A stretch of DNA of 64,000 bases from a virus (IMGVR_UViG_3300037067_007264:64001-128000); one strand, 5' to 3'; shown: positions 4,724 to 60,142, counted from the stretch's first letter. A program made the numbers and translations. The notes: generated from the sequence alone by a model not told the origin.

Positions 4724-5009
4724 GGTAGCTCAAAGGATGACCACCACTTGTTTCCACGATGGGGCCGTCTATGTCGAATCGAATGGCCTCACCGTTTGGG
4801 TCAACGAACAAGGCAAGTGTGTTGCTAGGTTTGGCCAACACTTCAGGGAATTCCTCATGGATTCAACAACTCCCGAAGTGGTCAAACACGCAAACTCAAC
4901 CCCTACGTTGACCGACTGGAATGACTTCGTCACCGTTGTCGAGAGTTACTGCAAGGTCAAGATGGGTGCTGAACATCGCCCTCGGTACATCAGGGCTTGG
5001 TCCCCATGA
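4710..5009 (+). CDS. hypothetical protein
   Basis: coupled ORF. Confidence 0.75.
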   Translation: MNTDKVAQRMTTTCFHDGAVYVESNGLTVWVNEQGKCVARFGQHFREFLMDSTTPEVVKHANSTPTLTDWNDFVTVVESYCKVKMGAEHRPRYIRAWSP

Positions 5010-5245
5010 AGTGTCCTTATTGCCTTCAGGACCCCGATAAGCATTCCCCAGGATGTCCAAACCTGTGTACCCTAGATGATGCCCACTGGGCCATTTCAAT
5101 CTACCACCTAGGTCGTGATCGGAGTGTTATGGGACTCCCCTGTCCGGCCGATGCGTCACCCACCTACAAACTAGGATATCACTTTGGAGAGCTCCTAACC
5201 GGGAAGTCTCAAAATCTTAGTGAGGATCCTGGCCCTGGTACGTAA
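5006..5245 (+). CDS. small protein with CxxC..H..C motif
   Basis: ATGA coupling; MKCPYC..HSPGCP. Confidence 0.7.
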   Translation: MKCPYCLQDPDKHSPGCPNLCTLDDAHWAISIYHLGRDRSVMGLPCPADASPTYKLGYHFGELLTGKSQNLSEDPGPGT

Positions 5246-5249
5246 TACT
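5221..5249 (+). promoter_or_regulatory. class B motif, leaderless
   Basis: TGAG 5221, CGTAATACT 5241, ATG 5254. Confidence 0.75.
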
Positions 5250-5253
5250 AGGC

Positions 5254-5688
5254 ATGTACACAAGCCCACTTCATCAAGGTTACCTAGACGCCCTTTACGG
5301 GAAAGATCAAGACCCTGAGCAGACTTGTTCTGAATACGAAGAGGGTTACATTGTAGGCCTATGTGACAGGGATGAACTAGCCGCTGGCACGCAACCTCCG
5401 AAGTTCCTCGGCTGCTATCGGGAAGATGACTTACCCATTAAGAGAGGTCAGGAAGTGATCATCCCCAAGGGTACGATGGTCAAGGTTGTAGGGAAGCCAG
5501 CAAAGCCTGCTGGGAGGACTTACAAGATCACAGTAGCTCACGTGAATAGTGGGAACACCTTCTATGTTAAAGGGAGCGCTTTCCGGAAAGAATACATCCG
5601 TCCAACTTCACCTAAGGTTGTATGGCCTGGCACTGGTGGCTACTGGGCAGAAGCCGACCTGAACGACATACTCAAGGCCAACCCATGA
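5254..5688 (+). CDS. hypothetical protein
   Basis: ATG 13 nt after the C of CGTA. Confidence 0.8.
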   Translation: MYTSPLHQGYLDALYGKDQDPEQTCSEYEEGYIVGLCDRDELAAGTQPPKFLGCYREDDLPIKRGQEVIIPKGTMVKVVGKPAKPAGRTYKITVAHVNSGNTFYVKGSAFRKEYIRPTSPKVVWPGTGGYWAEADLNDILKANP

Positions 5689-5721
5689 CAGGGCCCGTTA
5701 TCTCCGGTGTAAGCCTAATGG

Positions 5722-6003
5722 ATGTCCATTGATCCATTCACCGGTGAATTCGAAAGTCGCCGAGAGGCAAAACTAACCATCTCAAGGGTCATTACGGACA
5801 GGGGGCCAGACGTTTGCGTGCATCTCTTATCAGCTGATGGTACTGAAGTTGCTGTACTCTCACTTTTGCATGCATCACACTTTGTATCACCTGGGGGTAC
5901 TCGAGAGGCCGTAGCAAGATGGTTGGGTGAGATGAACAACACCAAGCCACCAAAGATTCCGGTGGAACCTCCAACGAGATTTGAGCGCGAGGAAGTGATC
6001 TAG
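5722..6003 (+). CDS. hypothetical protein with C-terminal TRFER tag
   Basis: ends PPTRFEREEVI; GGTGTA 5706. Confidence 0.85.
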   Translation: MSIDPFTGEFESRREAKLTISRVITDRGPDVCVHLLSADGTEVAVLSLLHASHFVSPGGTREAVARWLGEMNNTKPPKIPVEPPTRFEREEVI

Positions 6004-6329
6004 ATCACCGGGTTTCGTTCAAAGCGGGTTGGAGCTATTACTTTCGGTTCTTCCACTGATGCACTCTCGTTGACAATAGGGTCACCCGTCCTGGGTGACC
6101 CATCTCTTTGATATTGAACATTATTGACTACTATGTAAGCTGCATCATCTGCCGCAGCTTCAACGGCGTCTTCGGTAGCAAGTTCACCTAGTACTCGTTC
6201 CTGTATTAGGGTCAAGTATACAGCCAGAGACCTCTGTGTGACGTCATAGACATCCTCAGGATCAAAACCCTCTTCCAGGAGGGTATCGACCATATCTTCG
6301 GCAATGGCTGAGATGTCTCGAGCGGGCAC
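6000..6329 (-). CDS. hypothetical protein with C-terminal TRFER tag
   Basis: ends APTRFERNPVI; AGTGTA variant upstream. Confidence 0.85.
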   Translation of the reverse strand: MPARDISAIAEDMVDTLLEEGFDPEDVYDVTQRSLAVYLTLIQERVLGELATEDAVEAAADDAAYIVVNNVQYQRDGSPRTGDPIVNESASVEEPKVIAPTRFERNPVI

Positions 6330-6338: not shown

Positions 6339-7196
6339 TTACACTAAGTTCCGTATCGGTTCAAGTCGTACCTTGAGCTTTTTTACGACCTTAGTCTGCA
6401 ATTGGCGTACCCTCTCGCGGGAGACCCCGAGTTGAGTACCTAGTTCCTTGAGGCTCACAACCTCTTCCGGATCCTTCATGAGACGATCCGTCACGATTCT
6501 AATCTCGCGTGGGGTTAGGGAGGACATAGCTTCTTTCACGGATTCTTGGTAGAGAGCTTGAAGCTCATGGTCCACCACATAATCATCCTGTCTCTGCAGG
6601 TCAGAGGACAGACTGTCTCCAATCTCCAAGTGGCTACCATCTTTGCTCCTATGGGAGTCCATCGACAAGGACAAGTCCCTCTTATCGGTAGCCTGCATGA
6701 ATTGTTGAACCTTCTTCAGAGGGAGATTCATGCTCTTTACTAATGCCTGTTCAACCTCACTTGGAGTCGTGTAAGTGTTCTGAGCTCGGACCTTCTCCTT
6801 ATGAAACTTGAAGAAGTCCTTTGATCGAAACTTCACTAAAGAGTTGGTCTCGTTTTGGTACTTGACCACATGTTTGAATAGGTAGGCTCGAATCCAATAC
6901 ACGGCAAATGTGACGAATCGGTTACCACTATCTGGATCGTAACGACTGTCAATAGCCATAAGGAGGCCAAGGTTACCCTCGCTGATCAGCTCCTCTATTG
7001 GAATTGGGTATCGCTTAAACTGAAGGGCAACCGCGGTCACATATCGTAGAGAAGCGTTAATGATCTTTGCTCGAGCTGCATAGTCTCCTTTGTCCCTCCA
7101 AGCCTTGTACAGACGAATCTCCTCTTCTCTTGAGAGTACAGGGATCGACTTCACATAGGTGATGTAGTCAGATATCGTCTTATCAATATGGAACAT
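6339..7196 (-). CDS. RNA polymerase sigma factor, RpoH/sigma32-like
   Basis: region 1.2 LSREEE; region 2 ELISEGNLGLLMAI..YDP..RFVTFAVYWIRA; region 4 LTPREIRIV..SLKELGTQLGVSRERVRQLQ. Confidence 0.95.
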   Translation of the reverse strand: MFHIDKTISDYITYVKSIPVLSREEEIRLYKAWRDKGDYAARAKIINASLRYVTAVALQFKRYPIPIEELISEGNLGLLMAIDSRYDPDSGNRFVTFAVYWIRAYLFKHVVKYQNETNSLVKFRSKDFFKFHKEKVRAQNTYTTPSEVEQALVKSMNLPLKKVQQFMQATDKRDLSLSMDSHRSKDGSHLEIGDSLSSDLQRQDDYVVDHELQALYQESVKEAMSSLTPREIRIVTDRLMKDPEEVVSLKELGTQLGVSRERVRQLQTKVVKKLKVRLEPIRNLV

Positions 7197-7249: not shown

Positions 7250-7792
7250 CTATCGATTCCTTGTGTTGAACTCAAGGAGGTCCATCCTCGCTCTTAGTTC
7301 TTGATTATCGCTCTCGAGTCTCGCTATTCGACCCAGTAGTTCACTGAGGGTATAGGTCAGCCTCACATTATTTTCATACACGATACTCTGAAGTTGATTG
7401 AAATCATTGTTACCTGATATGTCAAGGTGGTGGATGGAATCCCAAGAACCCATACCCCCACTCGAGACAAGTAAGGGTCCACCACCAGATAGACCATTGC
7501 CGATGTTTTCTGGTGCAGGGCCGATCTGAACTCCAGTAGGTTCAACTTGAAGAGGCCTTAATGAAGAAGAATCGATGCGTATGGACCCACTATCATCCCC
7601 GTAGAATGTTGGATGTAACACCTCGGATGTAGGAGGACCAAGTATTCCAGATGGATAGTTCCTATGAGTCATCAAGTCCCATTCCTCTTCACGAAGTTTG
7701 GAAATCTTGAGAAGCTCATCCCGAAGACTGCTGATGGACGGCTTTGGTGCAGGCCTGATAGCCGCCCAGTACTCTTCTAAGTCGTCTTCCAT
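7250..7792 (-). CDS. N-terminal LEEYW-tag protein with C-terminal coiled coil
   Basis: MEDDLEEYWAAIRP; start reassigned by GGTGTA at 7805-7810. Confidence 0.8.
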   Translation of the reverse strand: MEDDLEEYWAAIRPAPKPSISSLRDELLKISKLREEEWDLMTHRNYPSGILGPPTSEVLHPTFYGDDSGSIRIDSSSLRPLQVEPTGVQIGPAPENIGNGLSGGGPLLVSSGGMGSWDSIHHLDISGNNDFNQLQSIVYENNVRLTYTLSELLGRIARLESDNQELRARMDLLEFNTRNR

Positions 7793-7859: not shown

Positions 7860-8555
7860 GTGTTCAAGAAAGACGTTAGGGAGATTGATACCCTGGATGT
7901 TGACGAGAGTGGTCACCTGAAGACCGCACTCGAAGCCCTTCGATTACTAATCATTGAAAAGCTTGAGTCAGGTCAAAGAACTCGATTCGCTTCAGTGGCT
8001 AGCTTGTGTGATGTAGCTCAATCGCTAATGAGATCTGAAGCGAACCCACGAGTCCCAAAGAGTAGGAAAGTTGCCTATATGGAGGATTATGAGGGTGCTG
8101 AGGGTGAGTATACCCCAAACGTTGTTGGAGATGTCCAATTCATGGGTCAACCAGTAATGTACCCGGATCCTAGGTACCAAAAAAGGAACATGGGTATTCA
8201 GATGGATGCCCTTTCCCAAGTTAACATAGAGAATCAGCGGTCTCAATGGGCTGCAGCTGAAGCTCAAGAACTTCGAGACTTGCTATCTGTTCGTGAAGTT
8301 ATAGGGGCATCTAGTAATAAAGATCTACTCGATGCCAGAGTAGCTAAGTTATTCAAGAACATAGGAGAGAGAACTGAAAATGGTAACCTGGTACATTCCG
8401 AGCTTTCACGGGGATCTTCAACTGGAGGCTCTAAGTCCAACAGAGACATCCCTTCGAATGTACAGCCTGTCCAATGTGGAACTGAGGGTAATGGAATCCT
8501 TCAGGAAGAAGGCTCTGAGAGGCGGGATACTATTCAAGCCTTGGGCGACAGCTGA
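7860..8555 (+). CDS. hypothetical protein
   Basis: GTG 11 nt after GGTGTA; 176-nt overlap with next ORF. Confidence 0.75.
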   Translation: MFKKDVREIDTLDVDESGHLKTALEALRLLIIEKLESGQRTRFASVASLCDVAQSLMRSEANPRVPKSRKVAYMEDYEGAEGEYTPNVVGDVQFMGQPVMYPDPRYQKRNMGIQMDALSQVNIENQRSQWAAAEAQELRDLLSVREVIGASSNKDLLDARVAKLFKNIGERTENGNLVHSELSRGSSTGGSKSNRDIPSNVQPVQCGTEGNGILQEEGSERRDTIQALGDS

Positions 8556-9168
8556 TAGCTTCCCTCCCATTTCGGAGTCCATATGTAGGACGGACCAGGG
8601 AATGACAGTTCGACTCCAGGCCTCTATCACCAAGGTAGCCAAGCACATAACTTCCAGACTGAAGCCCAGTCGAAGTCAGATCTCGGTAGTGAAGCTATCC
8701 AATGGTAATCTTCAGGAGTATAGGATCGATCCAACTCCTTCTGTAGCGGTAGCCTATCGAAGACCCTCTGTGACAGAGTCCATTGAGGAGTACTGGGAGG
8801 CTATCAAGTTGCCGGCGCTTACCGTGGCAGCTACGACAGTTGCCGTACCGGATAGAGGTTGTCCCGTTCCTGAATTTGCCAAGGCTGAGATTCGAGCTAC
8901 AAGGGTTCTAGAGGCATTCTTGGACCCAGGACAGATGGAGGACTTCCGACGGACAAATCAATTCATTACCATTGGTCAGGATACCGGCCATCGATACCTA
9001 CTTACCTCACGGATGAAGGTGAATAAGGGAGCCTTGTTTGACCTGGATCTTGATCGGTCCATTTGTGTACATGATTGGGAGGTACCAGCAGCTGAAGAGC
9101 TTTTGGGTCTCCACTTGTTCCTATCACTCCCAGGTTGGGAGAGTTGGATGCTCGAACTACCGGAGTGA
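8380..9168 (+). CDS. hypothetical protein with internal IEEYW tag
   Basis: TESIEEYWEAIKLP in central linker. Confidence 0.8.
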   Translation: MVTWYIPSFHGDLQLEALSPTETSLRMYSLSNVELRVMESFRKKALRGGILFKPWATADSFPPISESICRTDQGMTVRLQASITKVAKHITSRLKPSRSQISVVKLSNGNLQEYRIDPTPSVAVAYRRPSVTESIEEYWEAIKLPALTVAATTVAVPDRGCPVPEFAKAEIRATRVLEAFLDPGQMEDFRRTNQFITIGQDTGHRYLLTSRMKVNKGALFDLDLDRSICVHDWEVPAAEELLGLHLFLSLPGWESWMLELPE

Positions 9169-9170
9169 TT

Positions 9171-9773
9171 ATGCTTCCAACATCAGTCACCATTGGGCTA
9201 CTTCTGTTAGTTACTTTTACTCTTGGCTACTTGATTGGCCATAAGAAGGGGTTGCGCGAAGGAATCAAACTTAGAGAGGCTTTCAATAAGCCCCCTCCGC
9301 CCCCACCAAAGGAGGATACAGCTACCGCTTCTTCGGTTCCCTCTCTTGAGGTATCAGACCCAGATCGAATATTCGTTGACAAGTATAGTGTTTACAGAGG
9401 GGGAGTGATCTTCCGAGGGGGTCTGGAAATAGCTATCATTGATGAATCATCCCCCTTTGAGTTTGATAAGCTTCATGGTGTGCAGGAACTAAGTAGTGAC
9501 TTTGAACACTGTCGTAGGTTGAGTCGGCTATGGTTCGAAAAGTTTGGGGTTGATGCTGGGGTAGCTCTCTGTAATAGAGCGTACTTTGTCTCAAAGTCCG
9601 GTTTATTCTGGAAAGGTGACTTCATTCTCGGCAGGTTGGGTTCTCAATTTGAATTCGAAAAACTTAGTGGAAGCCCTGAGTTTTATCTGAAACCAGGACC
9701 GGAAGACGTAGAGATCTGTGAGAAGTTGTCCCTAGCCTGGAAGGCAGAATTCTTACCACCAACTGCTGCTTAG
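9171..9773 (+). CDS. single-TM protein with two repeated subdomains
   Basis: TM IGLLLLVTFTLGYLIG; FEFDKL.G / FEFEKLSG repeat. Confidence 0.75.
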   Translation: MLPTSVTIGLLLLVTFTLGYLIGHKKGLREGIKLREAFNKPPPPPPKEDTATASSVPSLEVSDPDRIFVDKYSVYRGGVIFRGGLEIAIIDESSPFEFDKLHGVQELSSDFEHCRRLSRLWFEKFGVDAGVALCNRAYFVSKSGLFWKGDFILGRLGSQFEFEKLSGSPEFYLKPGPEDVEICEKLSLAWKAEFLPPTAA

Positions 9774-10192
9774 ATCACATCTTCTCTTTCGAACCTTGTC
9801 GGATGGGGCTCCTTGAACCACCACGCGGGATTTACACTCTTCTCTGGTTGATGCTCAACTAGAGCAGCAGCGATCTGGGTCTCCATATAGAACATCACCA
9901 CCTTGGACGGCCAAGCTGGCATTGGTTCAATAGCTCTGAGAATGTGCTCGTTACGAAGTCCAAAGTCAGTCAGTAACCTAGCCGTAGTGGGAACCACTTC
10001 AAGCCAGAATTGACTCTTACCCTCGACTTCACGACATAGAAACATGGTGTGCCATCTTCTACCGTCGTAGACATCATCTTGATGTTCTACCCAGACTCTT
10101 CTGTCCCAATCGAATAGATGCTTAGGCTTCAACGCCATGAGATCTCTTGATTGGAGCCTAGTGACTGGCATCCAGATGATATCAGATGACAT
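9770..10192 (-). CDS. hypothetical protein with C-terminal TRFER tag
   Basis: ends HPTRFEREDVI; GGTGTA 10202-10207 (minus). Confidence 0.85.
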   Translation of the reverse strand: MSSDIIWMPVTRLQSRDLMALKPKHLFDWDRRVWVEHQDDVYDGRRWHTMFLCREVEGKSQFWLEVVPTTARLLTDFGLRNEHILRAIEPMPAWPSKVVMFYMETQIAAALVEHQPEKSVNPAWWFKEPHPTRFEREDVI

Positions 10193-10235
10193 GGCTTCCA
10201 ATACACCGAGTCACGGGGTATACTAGCTTGAGCAG

Positions 10236-10547
10236 ATGCTAGAGTTCAAAGTAAATACTCCTGATTCTAAACTTTTGGAAGACCTAGTTGAGAGTGAGAA
10301 GCTCAGCGAAGAGGAGGGGGAGGCCTTTTCCCGAATGCTAAGCGACCTCAAGGCTAGGAAGTTTCAGAAGCTGACTCCACGTCAGCGTGACTGGGTCGAA
10401 GGGGTCCACAAGCGACTTGGGTTAGATCCAGGGGCAGAGAATCTGGTCAGTTCGGGTCAACTTAGGGTTACCGAGGAAGAGCGGGCTAGCCTCAAGGGGT
10501 TTCTTGGTACCCTGGGTCCAAAAAGACTAAGGCCACCAGGTCGATAA
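10236..10547 (+). CDS. hypothetical protein
   Basis: GGTATA variant upstream. Confidence 0.75.
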   Translation: MLEFKVNTPDSKLLEDLVESEKLSEEEGEAFSRMLSDLKARKFQKLTPRQRDWVEGVHKRLGLDPGAENLVSSGQLRVTEEERASLKGFLGTLGPKRLRPPGR

Positions 10548-10751
10548 TCTTTATTTCAGGGCTCTGTAATAACTCTTCTGAGGGTGGATCCTTATTTCAA
10601 TTTTTGCCATCAGATTGAAATAACGGAGGTTGGCCTGTTGTTCAACTGTGAGTAAACATGGGTATAATCGAACCCTTGTAGGTAAATGAGGGCTGCAAAC
10701 TATTTCGACAAAATAGTTGAGTTTTGCTGCTCCTATGCGTAGTACTGCATC

Positions 10752-11822
10752 ATGCAATCTTGTTATCTCGCGGGGCCAGGGACAGTCGACAGGGTTAACA
10801 TCCTACGGGAGGGTACTGATGGGGCAGAGATGAAAGTTGTTCCAGCAAATCCAGTAGTTGTAGAGCTGGTCAAAGAGCGCTATTGTTTCGTGGCCAGCAG
10901 AGACGTTCTATTTGAAGACCCTGAAGCTGCTGGTTTGGAAGCTGAACGGCTTCGAGTTGCAGATATGGAAGCCAGACGTAGACGACAGAAAGAGATTCAA
11001 CAGATGATCAACGCAATGGATAACCAAGGTACGGGTGGGGATACTCAGACACAGGCACCGAATCTCGTTCTGGTGGAAGCCCCTCAAGAGGAGGTAACTC
11101 TTGAAGTGGAAGAGCAAGAAGTCATAGACATAGAGCCGGAGCTTCCGAAATCTAGTCTTGACTTGAGTGAAGAGGACAACGGATCCAACCCCGCCAGTCC
11201 TGTGAACTTCTTGAAGAACATTCAACGGGTGATCGGGAATGAAACCCTATCATTGGAAGAGGTTCACTCAAGGTTGAAGGCTGCTAAGTTGATGCCAGCC
11301 GCTAATAACCCGATCCACTATATCAAGTTTGTCATGTCTCAGGATCGAATCTTATTTGAGCGCCCAACTCGAATGAGTGTTTGCTTGACAGCAGAGAGCC
11401 CTTACTTGGCAACCACTTGGAACCCGGCGAAGGTTTCTACTAAGAAGTCTTCCAAGTCAAAAATTGAAAGTCAAACGCAAACACTTCCACTTGGAACTGT
11501 CAAGAAGAAGCCGGTAAAGAAGCCAGTTGAGCAGAAACCGTTGAAGATCAACCCAGTCTTCTTGACTTGGTTAGGTAATCCGATCACTCAGACGGTTTCG
11601 GACAAAGCTAATTTTGATGGGGAGAAGATGCGGTTACTCGAGCAACAGAAGGGTAACTCCTGGACCTGCGAGATCTTCTTGGTTGATCTGAAGCTATCCT
11701 TCACTGGGGAATCCAAGATGCGGCACCATGCCCGACACAAGGCAGAGGTAGCTATGAAAGAATCCATCAACGAGCTCAACATTCTAGTTCATAACGCTAC
11801 TCATCTAGAAGAAGATGCCTAA
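10752..11822 (+). CDS. protein with central HARE-HTH-like winged helix
   Basis: IQRVIGNETLSLEEVHSRLKAAKLMP..NP; class B motif 10718/10738. Confidence 0.75.
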   Translation: MQSCYLAGPGTVDRVNILREGTDGAEMKVVPANPVVVELVKERYCFVASRDVLFEDPEAAGLEAERLRVADMEARRRRQKEIQQMINAMDNQGTGGDTQTQAPNLVLVEAPQEEVTLEVEEQEVIDIEPELPKSSLDLSEEDNGSNPASPVNFLKNIQRVIGNETLSLEEVHSRLKAAKLMPAANNPIHYIKFVMSQDRILFERPTRMSVCLTAESPYLATTWNPAKVSTKKSSKSKIESQTQTLPLGTVKKKPVKKPVEQKPLKINPVFLTWLGNPITQTVSDKANFDGEKMRLLEQQKGNSWTCEIFLVDLKLSFTGESKMRHHARHKAEVAMKESINELNILVHNATHLEEDA

Positions 11823-12441: not shown

Positions 12442-13266
12442 ATGCCAAAAAAAACCGTCCGAGCCTATCTCAGTGAGCGAGAGTATATGCAATTCAACAT
12501 CCTAGCAGCCAAAAGAGGTCTTAGCCGTACTCTATTGACACTAAGAGTAATCCAAGAGTACTTAGTGTCTCAAGCGCGAGTTGAGCGTTACATGGTAGAC
12601 CCCGTTGCGGTTCCTGTAGAAACTAAGACGATCAAGATCAATACTCGGCAGTATGCCAGGTTGAAGAAGCTTCAAGTTGATGTACCAGGGTGCTCATGTG
12701 AAGTTCTCGAAGTTGAAGACGTCAAGAACATAATGCTGACCTACCCACTGAGTCGCGAAGCTGACGTTCTGAAGTTCTTAGCTGACTGCCCCAAGGGCTC
12801 GAGAAAGGAGTCCAAGGTCTTTAAGAAAATGGACCCAACTGCAACTCCAGGACTGAAGGCTGCTAGGCGTAAGAAAGAGGAGAGTGAGGGAGCTACCATC
12901 CACTCTCGAATCATCATGGCAGCTGAGAAGATCCTGATGGGGAGTCCTTTGCCGTTCGAAGACTTGTACTCTCAACTCAAGGCTCTAAAAAGAATTCCCG
13001 GTGGGTTTAACCCAAAGCCAATCCTCAGGAGACTACTAAAGGAGAGCCAGTTGTTTGACCTGAGCTCCGATGACACCTACTCTATTAGAGTTGAGTGCCA
13101 AGAAGAGTCGACTCCAGAACCAGAGGACCCAACACCAAACCCGGCTTCAGAAGCGGTTATTGAAGCTCCTCCAATATCTGAAACCCGGATTGAGGTAACC
13201 CCGAGTAAACCTGAGGGTTCAATCCCAAAAGTTCCAGTCCACTTTCCAAGATGGTCAGGAAGTTGA
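12442..13266 (+). CDS. putative DNA-binding protein (RHH-like N-terminus, HARE-HTH-like domain)
   Basis: KTVRAYLSEREY..LAAKRGLSRT; AAEKILMGSPLPFEDLYSQLK; GGTGTA 12424. Confidence 0.7.
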   Translation: MPKKTVRAYLSEREYMQFNILAAKRGLSRTLLTLRVIQEYLVSQARVERYMVDPVAVPVETKTIKINTRQYARLKKLQVDVPGCSCEVLEVEDVKNIMLTYPLSREADVLKFLADCPKGSRKESKVFKKMDPTATPGLKAARRKKEESEGATIHSRIIMAAEKILMGSPLPFEDLYSQLKALKRIPGGFNPKPILRRLLKESQLFDLSSDDTYSIRVECQEESTPEPEDPTPNPASEAVIEAPPISETRIEVTPSKPEGSIPKVPVHFPRWSGS

Positions 13267-13307
13267 TAAACTTGACTCTTGCTAGGTAACATGCCTAAAA
13301 GGCAAAC

Positions 13308-13838
13308 ATGTCTAGCAGACTGAGAGCTCTTGAATCCGATATCACTACACTCAACGTTGATGTAATTGTCAATGCTGCCAACGAAGTTATGCTTGGAGGC
13401 GGCGGGGTAGACCACGCAATCCATGCTGTAGCAGGGCCAGGGCTTCTGGAAGCCTGTAAGAGGGTCGTTGAGGTAAGTCCTGGAGTCAGGTGCCCAACTG
13501 GGGAAGCTCGCATCACACCGGCCTTTAGCCTGCCTTGCAGGTATGTTATTCACACGGTTGGACCCATCTGGAAAGGTGGGTTCAACAAAGAGGCTGAGCT
13601 TCTCACTTCTTGCTACCGAGAGAGCTTGAAGCTCGCAGCTCAATTCGGAACCTCGGTTGCCTTTCCAAGCATCAGCGCCGGGGCCTATGGTTACCCAACG
13701 GATAAGGCTTGTGAGATAGCTGTACGAGAATGCAAAGCATTCCTGAAAACTGACAGAACTCTCAATGATGTGATTCTAGTTTCATACGAGTCACCGATGA
13801 TCTTCGATATCCTCACGAAGATGATCCAATACCTCTAG
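13308..13838 (+). CDS. macro domain ADP-ribose hydrolase (YmdB-like)
   Basis: DITTLNVDVIVNAAN..GGGGVDHAIH..AG; VIHTVGPIW; AFPSISAGAYGYP. Confidence 0.95.
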   Translation: MSSRLRALESDITTLNVDVIVNAANEVMLGGGGVDHAIHAVAGPGLLEACKRVVEVSPGVRCPTGEARITPAFSLPCRYVIHTVGPIWKGGFNKEAELLTSCYRESLKLAAQFGTSVAFPSISAGAYGYPTDKACEIAVRECKAFLKTDRTLNDVILVSYESPMIFDILTKMIQYL

Positions 13839-14260
13839 ATTACATCCTCACGCTCGAACCGAGTCGGTGGTAGGGGTGCATCAGGTTCCTTGTGTACACC
13901 TAAGGATTCGGCACGAAGTCTCTTCACAACTTCCTGATCGACAGTTATCCCATTTAGGACCATTGTCTCGAGAATCTCTTCCATAGTCTGAGGGTAATCT
14001 GCAATATTACCCTCAGAGCGAGGCCTAGCAAGAACTACTCTGGTAAAAGGGTTGTAAGCTGGTGATCTAAACTCTCCAATGCGATTCTGGAGGAAGACTT
14101 GAAGGTCCTGCATGAGAGAGGAGCAATTAGCATTGTTCCAAGGTCCAGGACCAAACTCACTACAAGGAAACCCCGTTACATGTACCAATTGACTTTGATC
14201 CTCGAGGCCGCCTGATTCAGAATCTGGAATTAGCCTAATCTGAACTTCGAGGTATGGCAT
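13835..14260 (-). CDS. hypothetical protein with C-terminal TRFER tag
   Basis: ends PPTRFEREDVI; start at ATG next to upstream stop. Confidence 0.8.
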   Translation of the reverse strand: MPYLEVQIRLIPDSESGGLEDQSQLVHVTGFPCSEFGPGPWNNANCSSLMQDLQVFLQNRIGEFRSPAYNPFTRVVLARPRSEGNIADYPQTMEEILETMVLNGITVDQEVVKRLRAESLGVHKEPDAPLPPTRFEREDVI

Positions 14261-14261
14261 A

Positions 14262-14753
14262 TCACAGTACCGGATCCCTCTCGAATCGAGTCGGGGGTAA
14301 GTTTTCTGATGGAGTATCTCCTTCCACACATTGTTGAAGGAAGTTACTGGCTTTCGCCACAGAAGCATCGACCCCAGCAAACCACTTTTTGCTATCTATC
14401 CCGTTCGATTTGAACTCATCCCTCATACTACTGATAGCTATAATGAGATCCCCAAGGTGGTTGACTAAACCAGAAATAATGGCGTCATCCTCTGGAAAAG
14501 ACCTCACTGATGACATTCCCAATTGAGATCGTAGCCATTGCTCGTACAGGAAACCTTGCTCGAGAGCCGCCTGACGGAAGTCTAATGAGCAAGCATAGTT
14601 CTGCCCCAGGGTTCGAGGGTTGGCGTAGTAAATAGCATCGAGAGCCTGATTTATGAGGTTGCCGCCAATGTCCACAGAGATATCTTCGGATACCCCAAAT
14701 TCCTTTAGGGTATCCTTCATGTGAACAAGTAGTGTGTCAATTGAGTGAGGCAT
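14262..14753 (-). CDS. hypothetical protein with C-terminal TRFER tag
   Basis: ends PPTRFERDPVL. Confidence 0.85.
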   Translation of the reverse strand: MPHSIDTLLVHMKDTLKEFGVSEDISVDIGGNLINQALDAIYYANPRTLGQNYACSLDFRQAALEQGFLYEQWLRSQLGMSSVRSFPEDDAIISGLVNHLGDLIIAISSMRDEFKSNGIDSKKWFAGVDASVAKASNFLQQCVEGDTPSENLPPTRFERDPVL

Positions 14754-15115
14754 TACAGAACCGGATTTCTTTCAAATCTAGTTGGTCGTGAGATACTATT
14801 CGGGAGAAAATTCATGGCAGCTTGTTCTACATGAGACCTTTCTATAATGTATTGAGCTAGATGTACATGGGCTTCTTCAACGGATTTTTCTAAGGAGGTT
14901 TCTTTTCCACTAGCTGTGAAGGAACACCCGTAAGTTCCGCAATACCACTCATAGGGTTTCGGATTGTCAATGTCAGCCAGATCCCTGAAGATAGACATGT
15001 TGTATCCTCCACGGGTCGTGTACCAATAGATCCCTGGTCGTGATGGTTCGTTGGGTCTTCGAGACACCCTGATCCCCAAGAGAATCAACTCAAGATCCTT
15101 TTCCTCAGTTGGCAT
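14753..15115 (-). CDS. hypothetical protein with C-terminal TRFER tag
   Basis: ends RPTRFERNPVL; GGTGTA 15126-15131 (minus). Confidence 0.85.
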   Translation of the reverse strand: MPTEEKDLELILLGIRVSRRPNEPSRPGIYWYTTRGGYNMSIFRDLADIDNPKPYEWYCGTYGCSFTASGKETSLEKSVEEAHVHLAQYIIERSHVEQAAMNFLPNSISRPTRFERNPVL

Positions 15116-15125
15116 AGGCTCCAGT

Positions 15126-15163
15126 TACACCAAAATAGCTTGTAAAGTCAACTCTTCGGTGTA
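15126..15163. promoter_or_regulatory. divergent class A motifs between TRFER and IESYW operons
   Basis: TACACC 15126-15131, GGTGTA 15158-15163. Confidence 0.7.
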
Positions 15164-15188
15164 CTATGCGACAGGCCAACCCTAAGCC

Positions 15189-15213
15189 GGCCAAGTGTAA
15201 GGCTTGGGTAAAG
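15189..15213 (+). repeat. 25-nt exact repeat of 27294..27318
   Basis: ggccaagtgtaaggcttgggtaaag at both sites. Confidence 0.85.
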
Positions 15214-15701
15214 TAGCTGACACCGACGATATCGAGTCATTCTGGGATGGGCTGAGGCCTCCACGGGATCCGAGTACATTCACCAATGTAGCTGTCGAGA
15301 GTGTCAACTTAGAAAACCCTGTCGATGAGGAATCAATTCCTTATGTGACTCGTTACACCGTTGATTATGGTGACAACTCTCCCCTTGAGATAGAGGAGTC
15401 TAGTGCCTCCTTCACCACTATTGCCGAGGGTAATATCATCACGGACCCACCCTACTCTTCTCACTTGAGTGGCACGGACAGATCAAACAGGAGTCTCTTT
15501 AGAGAGATCGTTTACGCAACGGAAAGACTCCGCCAGTTACTAGGGTCAGCTGGAATAACCTATAACTTCACCAGACTGATAGATGGAATTGATATTAGAG
15601 CTCAGGATCTTAGTATTGGACCTGAAGATCCACGTTTAGGTTACTACCGAGAGATGACTGTTCTCATGGCCAATTCTGAGGATACCAATGCCAGAAGATA
15701 A
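15204..15701 (+). CDS. hypothetical protein with N-terminal IESFW tag
   Basis: DTDDIESFWDGLRPP. Confidence 0.8.
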   Translation: MGKVADTDDIESFWDGLRPPRDPSTFTNVAVESVNLENPVDEESIPYVTRYTVDYGDNSPLEIEESSASFTTIAEGNIITDPPYSSHLSGTDRSNRSLFREIVYATERLRQLLGSAGITYNFTRLIDGIDIRAQDLSIGPEDPRLGYYREMTVLMANSEDTNARR

Positions 15702-17196
15702 TGAAGTTGAATCCTATTGGGACCATCGGGAAGGTATTCGGACTCCTCCGACTCAAGAGTCTCGAGACCAATGGAACCCTAGTGGGCAACAGATATTCAA
15801 CATCCTGACTCGAGTGTTTGCAGATCCTCCCGCCGAGTATATCAGCCAGACTGAGAACGCTAACCTGATCATCACCCATCTAACTCGACAGTACAGGACT
15901 ACAGGTAACTACCCTGACTATGAAACAGTGCGTAATACATTTGAGACGAGAATAGAACCTGGTTGTGTTCTACTCTTAGATCGCATTGTACATAGTAACT
16001 TGTATAGTCGTACCCTGACTAGTGGAGAGTTGTGGGAGTACATGAGGAGGATGTATTCAAGTACCCCTACTTCTCGCATCCCTGAGGTAGATAGACAGAT
16101 CAGTGACTATGTCCTTGAGTATTGCAGGGAACACCATGCCTACCCATCGATAGCTATCATGCGTGGGTACTTCATTTCGAGCATGAGAATTCAGGAACGA
16201 ATTCAGGACTTGATTGTTCGTGTAGGGGGCCTCGATGGTGATATCCCATCTCCAAGCCTACCCCAAGAAGTGACGGCGCTTCAAGAAGAGGGTGAGTCCC
16301 AGAGTCAAGTTATCCTGGATATGCGTAGATTGGCTCTGCTACTGAGCAACCTTCAAGAACTCATCGACAGAGTTGGGGACGATGACCACATTGATTCGAT
16401 CATCACCGAGGTGTTCACTTGGGTTGAAGCTCAAGGTACTGCCCACAACATGCGTACTAGTTGGTGGCAAGACACCCTTCACAACTTCGAGGTTACCTAC
16501 CATATTCGTCGAGGGAGTGTTCATCGACAAGGGACTCATGCTCACGACAGTACTGCTGCAGACCGTAGGATTCTAGCATACACTGAACAGTACATGGGGA
16601 TGGTTGGGCATCTACCGAGCCAGGACGAGACTCGAAGATACTTCACAAGCGAGAATGATGGTCATGCTATAACAAGGTTGTCAGAAATAAACAGGAACGA
16701 AGTACCCCAGCATGAGAGACGCATGGATGCTGGTACCATGTTCCTAGGCCATAACATAGCAGACCTAGAGTTACCGGAGAGACGTTCCGACGATGAGCGG
16801 GAGTATGACACTCGTATCAACCTCAGGCGGGTTGCCCTGCTGCTCAATGGGATCATTGAGACATCCGATAATATGTCAGAACCCCTCAACAGGCGGGTGC
16901 TCAGTAACTTACAGACATCTCTTGATGAGTTAGGGGGTAGAACTTTCAACCATTATGGGGATGAGGACTGGAGGAGGACAACCCTACATAACTTCCGAGT
17001 GGAGTTCCTACCCATGAGTGCTCCGGGCACGTTCCCTCGTCCAGAGGAACTTTATCCAACTGAGAGACATGCCTACCCACCACCTAGGGATCCAATGACG
17101 ACCAGACCTCAGACCAGACCTCAAGAAAGGGTTGCTGAGGACAATAGGGTAGATGGGCCTGCTGAAGATGACTCTGTATCGATAACCAATGACTGA
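15688..17196 (+). CDS. repeat-containing protein with N-terminal VESYW tag
   Basis: EDNEVESYWDH; internal repeats. Confidence 0.85.
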   Translation: MPEDNEVESYWDHREGIRTPPTQESRDQWNPSGQQIFNILTRVFADPPAEYISQTENANLIITHLTRQYRTTGNYPDYETVRNTFETRIEPGCVLLLDRIVHSNLYSRTLTSGELWEYMRRMYSSTPTSRIPEVDRQISDYVLEYCREHHAYPSIAIMRGYFISSMRIQERIQDLIVRVGGLDGDIPSPSLPQEVTALQEEGESQSQVILDMRRLALLLSNLQELIDRVGDDDHIDSIITEVFTWVEAQGTAHNMRTSWWQDTLHNFEVTYHIRRGSVHRQGTHAHDSTAADRRILAYTEQYMGMVGHLPSQDETRRYFTSENDGHAITRLSEINRNEVPQHERRMDAGTMFLGHNIADLELPERRSDDEREYDTRINLRRVALLLNGIIETSDNMSEPLNRRVLSNLQTSLDELGGRTFNHYGDEDWRRTTLHNFRVEFLPMSAPGTFPRPEELYPTERHAYPPPRDPMTTRPQTRPQERVAEDNRVDGPAEDDSVSITND

Positions 17197-17395
17197 ATCT
17201 GAAGACAGCATCGAGTCCTATTGGGAGGTAGTTCGTCCTCACTTGATAGAGAGAGCTCGTCAACGAAGGGCTGCTCTACTCAAGAATATTCTAGGGGAAC
17301 ATCCGATAAAAACCTACAAGATCATCAAGGAATGGAACACATGTGAGTCCATCAGAGAGTTAAATTTGTCAGATGGCTACTACAAGAAGTGGTGA
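17189..17395 (+). CDS. small protein with N-terminal IESYW tag
   Basis: EDSIESYWEVVRP. Confidence 0.8.
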   Translation: MTESEDSIESYWEVVRPHLIERARQRRAALLKNILGEHPIKTYKIIKEWNTCESIRELNLSDGYYKKW

Positions 17396-17436
17396 CATAG
17401 AATCATATTGGGAGGTAGTTCGTCCTCACTTGATAG
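17219..17436 (+). repeat. 31-nt direct repeat (17219..17249, 17406..17436) encoding YWEVVRPHLI
   Basis: tattgggaggtagttcgtcctcacttgatag twice. Confidence 0.9.
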
Positions 17437-17705
17437 TCGAAAGCTCCATCAACTCCATGGTATTGCTGAAGGCTTTGATGAGGGTTAGCCGAAGAGTTTT
17501 GGTGCCAACCTTTGCGGCTGACCTGAAGATCCGCGAGTATATCTCGACGGTATTCAACACCTTCGGGGTCGAGGTCAGGTTTGAAACGATCCGGGAGCAC
17601 TTCCGTGGGGTACTAACTGAGTATGACTTCGAAAAGCCATCTGAAAACTTGGAGGTGCTCAAACGTCTTGACGAGATCTCCCGCATGTGGCCGGATGTGC
17701 TTTGA
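17373..17705 (+). CDS. protein with N-terminal IESYW tag
   Basis: GDIESYWEVVRP. Confidence 0.8.
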   Translation: MATTRSGDIESYWEVVRPHLIVESSINSMVLLKALMRVSRRVLVPTFAADLKIREYISTVFNTFGVEVRFETIREHFRGVLTEYDFEKPSENLEVLKRLDEISRMWPDVL

Positions 17706-18055
17706 TGACTGATGACATCGAGTCCTACTGGGAAGGCCTACGCCCGCCGCGTAAACCAGGGAAGGATCCGCCCAAGGGCAGTGTCTGTGACCATATCGAT
17801 CCGACCAAGATCGAAGGTTACCACATTTCAGAAGATGCTCTGTACCTGCTCGAGGATCCAGTGGATGGGGCTACTGCCTCTGACTACCAGGGAGAGTCCT
17901 GCGTAGTGTTCAGACCCAGGTGGTACAAGCTGCACCGGTGGGTCTGGTGGCTGTTCATCACTGGAGGGTTACTCTCCTCATACGAGTGGACCTTTACAGT
18001 GATAGACCTGAAGGTACATAAAGCCTATCGCCGAAGGAGAGAGTGGCCTGGCTAG
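17705..18055 (+). CDS. protein with N-terminal IESYW tag
   Basis: TGATG coupling; MTDDIESYWEGLRPP. Confidence 0.8.
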   Translation: MTDDIESYWEGLRPPRKPGKDPPKGSVCDHIDPTKIEGYHISEDALYLLEDPVDGATASDYQGESCVVFRPRWYKLHRWVWWLFITGGLLSSYEWTFTVIDLKVHKAYRRRREWPG

Positions 18056-18187
18056 AGGTTTACTCCACGTATCTTGAGCCTCTCGGCTCTGAACTATTAG
18101 CCAAAATCAACATACCCTCTTGGAATCCTCTGCAATAGGCTACCGGGCCAGTTATACCTAGTTCGAGATTCGGTGTAACTACATTCT

Positions 18188-18637
18188 ATGCCAACAATCG
18201 AAGTCGGTGAGTTTGATAAGGTATTCGTGGTAAGGCGCACGGAAACTCAGTTACCAAAGGGTTTTCAACAGGTAGTTGAGGTATCTGAGGATGACTTGTT
18301 AGTTTTTGTTCAACAAGGACACCTGATGACTGATACCCCAATAGGTAAACCTGCTCGGGGTGCACCCAAGGCTCGAGTATTCATCGGGGGTGACCAGATT
18401 GGTGTCCTGAACAAGGTTCGAGTGGAAGCCGATAGTGATAACCCACTTCCAATAATGGAGTTCTCCATTATCAGCCCTTTGGTTGAAGGACTCACAGAGA
18501 GCACTAGAAATTCTGTTCAAAAGAGTCTCGACAATTTGAAGAAGTTGTTACCGTTGGCAACTATCCATGAGATGGGTTTCAAGGGCGTTGAGCTCGCCAC
18601 CCACGGAAGGGACTTGACCCTTGAGTCTGTACCCTGA
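18188..18637 (+). CDS. hypothetical protein
   Basis: GGTGTA 18172. Confidence 0.8.
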   Translation: MPTIEVGEFDKVFVVRRTETQLPKGFQQVVEVSEDDLLVFVQQGHLMTDTPIGKPARGAPKARVFIGGDQIGVLNKVRVEADSDNPLPIMEFSIISPLVEGLTESTRNSVQKSLDNLKKLLPLATIHEMGFKGVELATHGRDLTLESVP

Positions 18638-19103
18638 GGATAAGTCTGAGCCTTTCATCTCGGTGAGAGGTTTGGTCTACAAGGGCAAGGGAGAACTGCC
18701 TCCTGAGAAGGCTCTTGTTGTGATCGTATTTGGGAAGCCCAAGGTCTTGATGTATATCGGGCCTGGACTCGACTTCATTTATGAAGATGGTTACATGCAG
18801 AACCACTTCGAAGAAGATGTGGAGATTCATATCCCATCTGACGGTCTCTATATCTGGACTGGGCAGGTGGTGGAGCGTACCAGCTTCGCAGAAGACGAGG
18901 TAGAGTATTGGATTGAGGGGTCCTTCGAGCCAGCCTCAAGATCGCAGTGGGACAAGTATCTGGAAGGTACTCCACCTTGGGATACTAGCTTGTACTTAGT
19001 TGATTCACGCATTAGGGATCTACTTCTCGAGGAGTGCGAGGAGGATCACACTAAGGCCAAGCACTGGCCTCCAGATAGGTTCCACCGAGAAGAAGTGATC
19101 TGA
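18621..19103 (+). CDS. hypothetical protein with variant TRFER tag
   Basis: ends PPDRFHREEVI. Confidence 0.8.
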   Translation: MSLYPEDKSEPFISVRGLVYKGKGELPPEKALVVIVFGKPKVLMYIGPGLDFIYEDGYMQNHFEEDVEIHIPSDGLYIWTGQVVERTSFAEDEVEYWIEGSFEPASRSQWDKYLEGTPPWDTSLYLVDSRIRDLLLEECEEDHTKAKHWPPDRFHREEVI

Positions 19104-19125
19104 CACCTTCGGTGTAGTCTGTCTC

Positions 19126-19845
19126 ATGGCTGATGTTGATGTAGAATCTATGAGGGCTGCCTTCGAGGAACTCGACCGCATTCCGTTTAGTTTTAAGGGT
19201 AAGTGCACTCAGGCCCGACTCATGGACGAGAACGATCCTGATGGTGCTGTAGCGCTAACGGATGATAAGGGTGTCGCTTATGTGATGATGCCTCGAGAGG
19301 TCTACGAGGATATCCTCGAGTACAATAAGAATCGGGCTAAGGACACAGTAGAAGACAGTTTCACTCAGAATACTAAGATCAGGTCAGAAGATGACTATGA
19401 TCTGACAGTTCATCGAGCAACAAAGCAAGATGCTGAAGACATCCATGCTTTTGGGATTACTATCCCTGAGATCAAGGTCAGCTCTCAAGTAGAGTTCATG
19501 AGCAAGGAGGAGCTCGAAGTCACACTTGAGAATCCCTGGGCTGTTGTTTTCTTCGCATGTGATAAGAAAGGAACTATTCAAGGCTTCTGCTTGGGGCAGA
19601 CGGGTGACCCAGATCACTGTGACGACCCGACTCAAGCTTGCCTTGTATACCTTGCTGTGGCTGAGGAGTGGAGGGGATCAAGCCTAGCGGTCAAGTTGTA
19701 CCAGGATGTCGTGGGCGAGCTCAAGAAGCGAGGTGTGACCTACCTCTATGCTTGGGCATGCCCAACGAGTGGGGCAGCAAAGTTCTTTGCTAAACAAGGG
19801 TTAGTACCAGGAAGAACTTGTGTTTGGATGGATACTAAGCTCTAA
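19126..19845 (+). CDS. GNAT-family acetyltransferase with N-terminal extension
   Basis: VHRATKQDAEDI; LVYLAVAEEWRGSSLAVKL; AAKFFAKQG. Confidence 0.85.
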   Translation: MADVDVESMRAAFEELDRIPFSFKGKCTQARLMDENDPDGAVALTDDKGVAYVMMPREVYEDILEYNKNRAKDTVEDSFTQNTKIRSEDDYDLTVHRATKQDAEDIHAFGITIPEIKVSSQVEFMSKEELEVTLENPWAVVFFACDKKGTIQGFCLGQTGDPDHCDDPTQACLVYLAVAEEWRGSSLAVKLYQDVVGELKKRGVTYLYAWACPTSGAAKFFAKQGLVPGRTCVWMDTKL

Positions 19846-29249: not shown

Positions 29250-29392
29250 GAAGTCATAGATCTAGCTGAGGTAACTAGCCGGTAGATTCGAACTACCTAC
29301 GACTAGCCAGTCGTATTCCAGATTCGAACTGGTTGGGTGATCAAGCCCTATCCCCTATGGAAACCAGTTACCTCAGCTAGATCTATGACTTC
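29250..29392 (-). ncRNA. tRNA-like structured RNA with two T-arms
   Basis: perfect 27-bp inverted repeat enclosing five hairpins, two with TTCGAAT loops. Confidence 0.7.
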
Positions 29393-30392: not shown

Positions 30393-30941
30393 ATGATCAT
30401 TACGCGTAAAGAGGGTCACGAATACTGGGCTACGCCTGACCCTTGGGATCCGGCTCTGTACTCTGACTATGTCATTGTCAGAAACTCGACGTCCTCATTG
30501 TTCCTGGTCGACGGTGGACGTGAACTAGGACCCTCGAATCAATGTGAGGAGTGGCAGTTTACCCTACTTGGGATTACTGGGAGTGAGGTAGAGCCAGAGG
30601 TTGGAGAGCGGTTTGGTTTCACGGTTGTCCAAGAGCGAGTCTATCCCGTCTGTTGCGAGTACGGTCAGAATCTTTACTGGAGATGGCCCTCCCCGAGCAC
30701 CAGGCGGTGTTCAGGAGTTCCAGAGCCCGGATGGTACACTGGCATAGCCTGTACTTCCTACAGTGTCTGGCAGCCAACCAACGGCATCTGTCCAGGTTGT
30801 GGGGAGCCTCTTCCAGAACCTGGGATTGGGGAGCAAGTCCGAGGGCGTCAGCATCTCATCGGTCTCCTGAAGGGACACCTTCAACTGATTCCAAGGTCAA
30901 GCTACCCAACTCGATTTGATCGAATACTCAAACAACCTTAG
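30393..30941 (+). CDS. Cys-containing protein with C-terminal TRFDR tag
   Basis: ends YPTRFDRILKQP; GGTGTA 30374. Confidence 0.8.
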   Translation: MIITRKEGHEYWATPDPWDPALYSDYVIVRNSTSSLFLVDGGRELGPSNQCEEWQFTLLGITGSEVEPEVGERFGFTVVQERVYPVCCEYGQNLYWRWPSPSTRRCSGVPEPGWYTGIACTSYSVWQPTNGICPGCGEPLPEPGIGEQVRGRQHLIGLLKGHLQLIPRSSYPTRFDRILKQP

Positions 30942-30949
30942 GTACTTAG

Positions 30950-44930: not shown

Positions 44931-44996
44931 ACTTTGGGGCTTCATTTGTTGTAACTAATTTGCTGAGATCTGAACTACTTGCACGTAGTATTGATC

Positions 44997-60112: not shown

Positions 60113-60142
60113 TCCGATTGGGTTTCGGTGTATTGGGCCTCA

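Follow-up and report, generated by a model that had tools for sequence, protein, structure and literature searches.

Positions 13835 to 18055 of a viral DNA stretch of 64,000 nucleotides (nt), namely, bases 64001-128000 of viral contig IMGVR_UViG_3300037067_007264 (hereafter, the window), hold a divergent operon pair, and the proteins encoded by both operons carry a short terminal peptide. Three consecutive minus-strand genes, whose products end in a TRFER-type peptide (the C-tag), diverge from five consecutive plus-strand genes, whose products start with an IESYW-type peptide (the N-tag) (Table 1). In these five proteins the N-tag begins 4 to 10 residues after the Met and is mostly followed by xx-h-R-P. 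An earlier reading made from the bare sequence (the sequence-only reading) had described the two operons as diverging across paired GGTGTA motifs at 15126-15163. This arrangement was reproduced, and the motifs proved to be conserved in relatives.

The 145,487-bp contig (G0) was rated 28% complete by CheckV. Relatives were located in IMG/VR via a back-translated pattern for PTRFEREDVI, and the following were compared with G0: G001 (G1), a complete genome of 512,571 bp with terminal repeats; G002 (G2), a 228-kb fragment; and G003 (G3), a 71-kb fragment. All remaining viral matches of the pattern fell in the same clade. G0 is a fragment of a huge phage with a genome of ∼0.5 Mb, and the operon pair lies in the accessory small-gene half. 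A DNA search of a phage collection gave no match for window positions 13000-19500, and only two close relatives came up when the tail region was used in a word-based search for homologues.

The minus-strand GGTGTA of the operon pair is kept in G1, and the plus-strand copy is kept in G1 and G3. The latter lies at an unusual distance of 43 to 46 nt from the start codon, which is kept in two relatives along with a GGCC..GCCGGCC leader; this was the one leadered unit looked at among those headed by GGTGTA (class A, see below). The second N-tagged gene (15688-17196) had no Pfam or PHROG family. The tagged operons are flanked by a Macro-domain gene (13308-13838, plus strand) and a GNAT acetyltransferase gene (19126-19845, plus strand), which are possibly protein-modification enzymes.

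Sequence, position, and conservation of the two tags

The C-tag reads P-T-R-F-E-R, followed either by x-x-V-[ILV]-COOH (first subtype) or by [IV]-L and an acidic tail (second subtype), and the N-tag reads [DE]-[DS]-[IVL]-E-[SE]-[YF]-W-x-x-h-R-P. C-tagged and N-tagged genes numbered 31 and 13 among 262 genes in G0, 59 and 23 among 735 in G1, 49 and 14 among 393 in G2, and 20 and 7 among 141 in G3, so that about 10 to 17% of the genes of an element carry a tag (∼1 in 6 in the huge phage). Both tags are bound to one end of the protein. Over the four genomes, the C-motif was found 159 times within the last 24 residues and 29 times elsewhere, which makes it ∼35-fold denser at the end. Exactly four residues follow RFER in 71 C-tags (60 of which end in V[ILV]); in the remaining 88, [IV]L comes next and then a short tail that is acidic for the most part. 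The N-tag started 3 to 10 residues after the Met in 56 of 57 cases. R, F, and R were invariant in 69 aligned C-tags; W was invariant, and E nearly so, in 56 aligned N-tags. On the body side, both tags adjoin Pro/Glu/Lys-rich stretches. Not one of the ∼216 tagged proteins of the four genomes had both tags (∼6 expected if the tags were independent), and the mutual exclusion stated in the sequence-only reading thus holds well beyond the window.

Synonymous codons vary freely inside the C-tag, with all six Arg codons (CGN and AGR), TTY for Phe, GAR for Glu, and all codons for Thr and Pro in use. This indicated selection at the level of the peptide rather than of a DNA signal, and a DNA-level motif or handle was ruled out by the same variation. 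Orthologues in G1 to G3 retain the tags at a body identity of 30 to 80%, with conservative changes such as TRFQR, TRLER, and DDFEDYW. Genes with the same type of tag were adjacent 3 to 5 times more often than in shuffles, and mixed-type neighbors were not enriched. Both tags are therefore selected as peptides, strictly terminal, modular, and mutually exclusive. They have the general features of a short linear docking motif (5 to 12 conserved residues in a disordered region that recur on unrelated proteins and are kept in orthologues).

The proteins that carry the tags have little in common apart from them. After trimming of the tags, 3 similar pairs were found among 41 tagged G0 proteins, and none of 43 tagged G0 proteins contained a Pfam domain. 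One domain family carries either tag: a core of 105 residues is common to the C-tagged product of 18621-19103 and the N-tagged product of L065:2645-3136 (34% identity). The six members of this tag-swap family comprise three with a C-tag extension, one with an N-tag extension, one untagged, and one with an unrelated C-terminal extension. In the AlphaFold2 model of a tag-swap protein, the core had a predicted local distance difference test (pLDDT) score of 75 to 92 and the 30-residue tagged tail a score of <60; Foldseek gave no fold match for the core in the PDB at an E value of ≤0.001. Carriers are thus unrelated, and either tag can be used on one domain family. The few Pfam matches among the 100 largest tagged proteins of G1 to G3 included Tad2-like (Thoeris anti-defense 2) domains, which make up small proteins by themselves in some cases and are joined to a tagged extension in others.

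Two C-tagged proteins (L062:11838-12863 and L062:13978-14733, both minus strand) contain segments 36 to 55% identical to a 289-amino-acid (aa) protein of G1 (403571-404440, L041) that sits in the structural block of that genome. The same two proteins match PHROG 2522, “major head protein,” and the head-like pieces are permuted in them, with residues 239-289 ahead of residues 85-137.

Two promoter classes

Promoter motifs were sought by k-mer enrichment in the 40 nt upstream of 260 predicted genes. GGTGTA was present within this distance of 46 of the 260 (2.8 expected; 16-fold enriched), and CGTA(A/G)TA was the second enriched motif. At 42 class A sites of G0, the first base of GGTGTA lies 14 to 19 nt (mode, 16) before the start codon; a weak T-run precedes it, and no -35 region or column further upstream is conserved. 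Class A thus consists of one short element at a fixed distance without a -35 element, as do T4 late promoters. That GGTGTA is a variant Shine-Dalgarno sequence was rejected, since the 10 nt between its end and the ATG are too large a distance for GGUGA-type pairing with the 3' end of the 16S rRNA. To our knowledge, GGTGTA at -16 to -11 from the ATG matches no described promoter.

The consensus of class B, built from 17 G0 sites and ∼24 G2 sites, has the -35 hexamer, 17-nt spacer, and -10 hexamer of a sigma-70-type promoter. It reads TTGAGA, 17 nt, TA(G/A)TAC in G0, G1, and G3, with CGTA starting 13 nt before the ATG, and in G2 the lineage-specific -10 element TAGGAT is used at the same distance to the ATG. 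CGTARTA was located exactly 13 nt before the ATG at 12 of 19 sites in G0, 17 of 27 in G1, and nearly all in G2. Transcription is then expected to start on the A of the ATG, and judging from this spacing, class B mRNAs would be leaderless, which would apply to ∼20 genes in the G0 fragment. Class B sites are putative immediate-early promoters of the host holoenzyme. Both classes occur in all four genomes, the numbers of A-led and B-led genes being 50 and 19 (G0), 94 and 27 (G1), 54 and ∼34 (G2), and 23 and 7 (G3).

Tagged genes and promoter class

Transcription units were defined from the sequence as same-strand runs below a motif. At the level of genes, tags were found in 24 of 111 genes in class A units versus 0 of 56 in class B units in G0 (p = 3e-5) and in 28 of 285 versus 0 of 68 in G1 (p = 0.004); the difference was not significant in G3 (9/47 versus 4/26). 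The gene-level count for G2 was left aside, as it missed the class B -10 variant of that genome, which the unit-level test includes. When the units of the four genomes were pooled, at least one tagged gene was present in 66 of 272 class A units and 5 of 84 class B units, that is, about four times more commonly in class A (p = 1.3e-4, with all units counted as independent); in G0 alone, the fractions were 18/56 and 0/19 (p = 0.004). Genes directly led by class B were tagged in 0 of 19 (G0), 0 of 27 (G1), ∼1 of 34 (G2), and 0 of 7 (G3) cases. For the window, the counts of the sequence-only reading were recovered: all 12 TRFER genes either follow a class A motif or belong to a same-strand run downstream of such a motif (in one instance the AGTGTA variant), the figure for IESYW genes, given as at least 9 of 11, came to 9 to 10 of 11, and no class B-led gene is tagged.

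Tags and promoters also have a map position in common. In G1, the 0- to 240-kb half, with small genes on both strands, contains the tags (but for three stray ones), the class B sites, and the majority of class A sites, and the block of long minus-strand genes at 240 to 460 kb has almost no tags or promoter motifs. The association of tags with promoter class is consequently in part regional.

Occurrence outside the clade and search for a reader

C-tagged small genes were also found in an 8-Mb metagenome-assembled genome (MAG) labeled “uncultured delta proteobacterium,” in three islands only and with C-tags only. One island holds a VapE-like primase gene and a divergent gene for a sigma-like protein (40% identical to a G1 protein), with an integrase gene nearby; another adjoins a phage integrase gene. 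A scan of metagenomes returned mostly fragments of the clade, plus a contig, L087, that has no protein match to the clade and encodes a large terminase, a portal, and a minor head protein. Just upstream of these, L087 has a C-tag gene of the second subtype, an N-tagged gene, and a C-tag gene of the first subtype; both tags thus travel together in an unrelated phage. A profile of 69 aligned C-tails, searched against 1.84 billion representative proteins, gave nine matches at an E value of ≤0.001, all of them C-terminal and all from this clade or the one MAG island, which indicated that the tag is narrow in distribution. No annotated carrier was among these matches. We found no literature that mentions the tag motif, broader literature searches were likewise without relevant result, and the two-tag system is described nowhere that we found.

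As candidate readers, ClpP, TPR_12, and the DnaN N-domain were searched for in G0 to G3 and were not found, in keeping with the expectation of the sequence-only reading that receptors lie outside the window. No enzyme family was found to accompany the tags in huge phages, L087, and MAG islands alike. The tags are carried by three kinds of element that are unrelated and have no candidate reader in common, so that the reader is probably encoded by the host.

G0 has one gene for a sigma-70-family factor and G1 has three or more, and such a gene is flanked by tagged genes in G0 (6339-7196, minus strand) and in G3 (10490-11338). In one MAG island, a sigma-like gene (L072:606-1340) is next to the tagged operon; the product of the L087 neighbor of tagged genes (4855-5850) has a borderline sigma region 4-like helix-turn-helix only. 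These sigma-like proteins have no mutual similarity, and we take the linkage of sigma genes and tags as a lead from which no claim is drawn. A “tagged sigma” in G1 was rejected as a false positive of a loosened motif.

Other features of the window and the genomes

In total, the window contains 12 C-tagged and 11 N-tagged genes (Table 1), and its products include a sigma-70-family factor, the Macro-domain protein, and a tail-fiber-like protein. Two C-tagged genes converge with overlapping stop codons; their tag-coding stretches (5990-6010) form an imperfect inverted repeat that folds no better than shuffles (z = -1.0), and a terminator hairpin at 5950-6055 was rejected on this score. Further examples of class B precede 45645 and 47538. 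ARAGORN detected no tRNA or transfer-messenger RNA gene in window positions 1-64000, 29250-29392 included.

Table 1. Tagged genes and promoter elements of the window, ordered by position
Position	Strand	Feature	Remarks
35-526	+	N-tagged gene (QSIEEYW)	Led by class A
5722-6003	+	C-tagged gene (PPTRFEREEVI)	Class A at 5706; converges on 6000-6329, stop codons overlap
6000-6329	-	C-tagged gene (APTRFERNPVI)	AGTGTA variant ahead of gene
6339-7196	-	Phage sigma-70-family factor, regions 2, 3, 4	Between an N-tagged and a C-tagged gene
7250-7792	-	N-tagged gene (MEDDLEEYWAAIRP)	Class A-led; first gene of sigma-factor unit
8770-9168	+	N-tagged gene (ESIEEYWEAIKLP) if GTG 8770 is the start	Otherwise motif internal to open reading frame 8380-9168
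9770-10192	-	C-tagged gene (HPTRFEREDVI)	Class A motif at 10202-10207
13835-14260	-	C-tagged gene 3 of minus-strand operon, 141 aa, ends PPTRFEREDVI	Start set at ATG 14260, immediately after upstream stop
14262-14753	-	C-tagged gene 2, 163 aa, ends PPTRFERDPVL	
14753-15115	-	C-tagged gene 1, 120 aa, ends RPTRFERNPVL	Tag kept in G1 and G3 orthologues
15126-15131	-	Class A motif GGTGTA	First base 16 nt before ATG 15115, canonical distance
15158-15163	+	Class A motif GGTGTA of N-tag operon	46 nt before TTG 15204, noncanonical
15164-15203	+	Leader with GGCC..GCCGGCC between class A motif and first N-tag gene	Conserved
15204-15701	+	N-tagged gene 1, 165 aa, TTG start, DDIESFW tag (DDIESFWDGLRPP)	G1 orthologue has ATG start
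15688-17196	+	N-tagged gene 2, 502 aa, tag NEVESYW	
17189-17395	+	N-tagged gene 3, 68 aa, DSIESYW tag (DSIESYWEVVRP)	
17373-17705	+	N-tagged gene 4, 110 aa, GDIESYW tag (GDIESYWEVVRP)	
17705-18055	+	N-tagged gene 5, 116 aa, DDIESYW tag (DDIESYWEGLRPP)	
18172-18177	+	Class A motif heading next unit	16 nt before ATG 18188
18621-19103	+	C-tagged gene (PPDRFHREEVI variant), tag-swap family	
30393-31225	+	Two consecutive genes, second tag subtype (YPTRFDRILKQP, PPTRFERILIGD)	Class A at 30374
37530-38024	+	N-tagged gene (DSIESDW)	Upstream only GGTATA variant at 37225
39867-40277	+	C-tagged gene (PPTRFEREWVI)	Run below class A at 39400
44984-44990	+	Class B example, CGTAGTA 13 nt before ATG 44997	TGAGAT ∼17 nt upstream
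53454-53780	+	C-tagged gene, second subtype, long acidic tail (PRTRFERINEDE...)	Below class A at 52781
58613-59170	+	N-tagged gene (DDIEEYWGVARP)	GGTGTA 45 nt upstream
62106-62612	+	C-tagged gene, second subtype (RPTRFERILEED)	Run below class A at 60127
63445-63819	+	N-tagged gene (NDIESYWMDVRP)	Same run as 62106-62612 (class A at 60127)

Upstream of the window, G0 encodes a deoxynucleoside monophosphate (dNMP) kinase, a NUDIX hydrolase, a nicotinamide phosphoribosyltransferase, and a PurZ-like adenylosuccinate synthetase. The PurZ-like gene (PHROG 1211; L061:12880-14256) is located beside those for the nicotinamide phosphoribosyltransferase (L061:10123-11511) and the NUDIX hydrolase (L061:9289-10113), all on the plus strand, and this neighborhood may point to 2-aminoadenine DNA and to an NAD-salvage (anti-defense) module. 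An ESWWGLK reading recurs in the six-frame translation of L065 (∼138 to 140 kb, genome position) and marks a long repeat array. The terminal repeats of G1 (1-200 and 512074-512569; L021, L046) are built of 42-nt tandem units (...GGATCTGGAACTCAGGGTAATCAAGGAGCTCAAGG...), which may be collagen-like Gly-X-Y coding repeats.

Discussion

The explanation that we favor, with about even confidence, is a docking-tag system in which a reader encoded by the host would serve both tags, the cargo would consist of accessory proteins, and transcription would proceed mainly from class A promoters. The tags would be short linear docking peptides, displayed on flexible Pro/Glu/Lys-rich linkers at the free end of otherwise unrelated small proteins, with one of the two sufficing and with the same reader taking the carriers of both. 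From the free end toward the body, both tags present an acidic/aliphatic part, an aromatic residue, Arg, and Pro, so that one groove could bind them in opposite backbone directions, in the way that SH3 domains bind two ligand classes in opposite directions. The cargo would be accessory proteins of host takeover or anti-defense, one tagged family being Tad2-like. Tagged genes would be transcribed mainly from the phage-specific class A promoters and largely kept out of class B units, and the tagged set would accordingly be made in the phage-controlled phase, possibly under the direction of the phage sigma factor that is encoded between tagged genes. We infer the docking function, the host origin of the reader, the timing, and the form of polymerase that acts on each promoter class.

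Several observations weigh against this explanation. The reader was not found in the phages, so that docking is deduced from the architecture of the tags. Class A also heads the unit of the sigma factor itself and a dNMP kinase gene, which makes it a promoter of general use in the phage rather than one reserved for tagged genes, and the motif is not conserved in L087 or the MAG islands, so that tags and promoter are separable. In the operon pair itself, the promoter motif of the N-tag operon lies at a noncanonical distance from the start. Tags are nearly as frequent in units with no assigned promoter (32 of 227 units), and at the gene level the tag rates of unassigned and class A genes were 18% and 22% in G0 and 9.2% and 9.8% in G1. 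Five class B runs in G2 and G3 hold tagged genes downstream, and promoter class is for this reason a tendency and not a rule. Moreover, orthologous units of four related genomes are not independent, so that pooled p values are optimistic, and unit borders were set by same-strand runs alone. The proposal of the sequence-only reading that both tags belong to one promoter class survives as a depletion from class B and is not supported as a specificity for class A. Over the four genomes, the bias of A over B (p = 1.3e-4, pooled and hence optimistic) is accompanied by unassigned units that are tagged almost equally. Tags are depleted from class B, although not absolutely, they are not specific to class A, and co-regulation of the tagged genes is partly supported by the inferred units.

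The alternative that survives best, although we consider it improbable, is that the tags load proteins into the virion by binding to the procapsid interior, the scaffold, or the portal, so that accessory and anti-defense proteins would be packed into the head and enter the cell together with the DNA. The capsid-targeting sequence of T4, an N-terminal loading tag, and the cargo peptides of encapsulins act in this manner. The layout of a body, a flexible linker, and a terminal peptide is that of encapsulin cargo, and a Tad2-like anti-defense domain is among the tagged proteins. Two tagged proteins have pieces resembling a putative G1 head protein and PHROG 2522, and the tagged genes of L087 closely precede those for the terminase, the portal, and the minor head protein, with which they share the strand. 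However, the 240- to 460-kb block of G1, with its long, mostly structural-looking genes, is devoid of tags, which are found in G1 at 0 to 240 kb plus the three stragglers, without association to head genes; the long genes at 300 to 500 kb have none. The tagged genes lie among small accessory genes and have promoters in common with genes of nucleotide metabolism, and the MAG islands showed integrase, primase, and sigma-like genes and no capsid genes in the ∼12 kb examined. The T4 peptide is removed by the prohead protease at (L/I)xE, and a cleavage site in this register is absent from both tags: I and E are adjacent in the N-tag (D-I-E-S), and the C-tag is at the opposite end of the protein. 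The C-tag consensus is PTRFEREDVI and not the LxIGSLK of encapsulin cargo, and there is no shell gene beside the tagged arrays. Finally, ∼60 to 80 different cargo proteins per genome would be many.

Next in rank, and likewise improbable, is that the tags are degrons read by a host AAA+ protease or its adaptor, in which case carriers would either be short-lived or, as adaptors, bring host targets to the protease. There is a precedent in ClpXP, the substrates of which form separate C- and N-terminal motif classes, and in adaptors, which dock by short C-terminal peptides. The first C-tag subtype needs a free C terminus with an aliphatic end, the phages have no ClpP of their own, which is compatible with a host machine, and a host reader would suit the presence of tags in mobile elements that are unrelated. 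Neither an ssrA-type LAA nor a MuA-type RRKKAI is resembled by the tags, however, and a free aliphatic end is not general, since C-tags of the second subtype terminate in acidic tails that vary.

A phage or host enzyme that modifies the Arg, Thr, or Trp of the tags or trims them, the tags being substrate handles, would account for the invariance of R, F, and R in the C-tags and of W, with E nearly invariant, in the N-tags. It would also suit the positions of the Macro-domain gene, which abuts the C-tag operon, and the GNAT gene, which comes after the next tagged gene. We regard this as distinctly unlikely: no enzyme family was found to accompany the tags through huge phages, L087, and MAG islands, and Macro-domain and GNAT genes are common in phages, the adjacency being a single instance.

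That the tags bind each other, the acidic-aromatic N-tag pairing with the basic-aromatic C-tag to form heteromers, had been put forward as an alternative in the sequence-only reading and is disfavored here. Complementary charges, back-to-back operons with a common promoter type, and the co-occurrence of both tags in L087 speak for it. Yet one domain family carries either tag, which fits equivalent and not complementary roles, N-tags are missing from the MAG islands, C-tags outnumber N-tags (159 versus 57), and it is neighbors of the same type, not of mixed type, that are enriched (3- to 5-fold). A complex prediction for N-tag and C-tag segments, run without controls (score, 0.02), counts neither for nor against it. 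The first three of the opposing points make mutual binding the least likely in comparison with virion loading, degrons, and a modifying enzyme, and we deem it very unlikely. Equally implausible is that there is no addressing system and that the tags are remnants of family expansion or recombination handles with a regional by-product as promoter link: same-type genes do cluster in arrays, and tags and both promoter classes do occupy the same small-gene half, but the carrier bodies are unrelated, free synonymous sites exclude a DNA-level handle, tags persist in orthologues at 30 to 80% body identity and in unrelated elements, and strict terminal position with a fixed register is not expected of remnants.

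The docking-tag explanation can be extended, more tentatively and with doubt prevailing, to an addressing code of mobile elements in one bacterial lineage, in which two terminal peptides would be read in opposite directions by one host hub and, in huge phages, phage-specific promoters would switch the set on. If this is true, then phages, both huge and smaller, and integrated elements connect dozens of fast-evolving takeover and anti-defense proteins to one host machine. If a single reader serves 10 to 17% of the proteins of a half-megabase phage, its discovery would make a large block of viral “dark matter” accessible at the level of function and would expose a host hub exploited by several unrelated mobile elements. 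As portable peptides, the tags could be put to use for addressing. The two promoter classes, in turn, constitute a map of regulation that can be tested, for huge phages of a clade without cultured members.

Comparison with known systems

Each promoter class has a known counterpart in form. The T4 late promoter TATAAATA, which is read by gp55 and has no -35 element, resembles class A in consisting of one short element, and differs from it in that class A has the sequence GGTGTA at -16 to -11 from the ATG. Leaderless sigma-70 promoters occur in Actinobacteria and Deinococcus; class B resembles them in its -35/17/-10 structure and in its predicted start at the A of the ATG.

With respect to the tags, the closest match in logic is the pair of peroxisomal targeting signals PTS1 (a C-terminal SKL read by Pex5) and PTS2 (an N-terminal nonapeptide read by Pex7). 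There, too, two short signals at opposite termini are alternatives on unrelated proteins, homologous cargo occurs with either, and both lead to one destination. Unlike the tags, however, these signals are eukaryotic, show no sequence similarity to them, and have two identified readers, so that the analogy is one of logic only. The T4 capsid-targeting sequence and encapsulin cargo peptides are also short terminal peptides that sit on flexible linkers of unrelated proteins, possibly with anti-defense cargo in common. They differ from the tags, which have no similarity to the T4 sequence or the LxIGSLK-type motif, no protease-site register, no linkage to the head module in G1, and an occurrence in small integrated elements where capsid genes were not seen. 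The beta-clamp motif QL[SD]LF, the ClpX-binding peptide of SspB, and the ClpX recognition classes share with the tags a short, terminal, linker-borne form and many unrelated clients, which are read by one host hub and are housekeeping proteins. Here the consensus is a different one, matching neither QL[SD]LF nor QLxLxL in the case of the beta-clamp motif, and the carriers amount to ∼10 to 17% of the genes of a mobile element.

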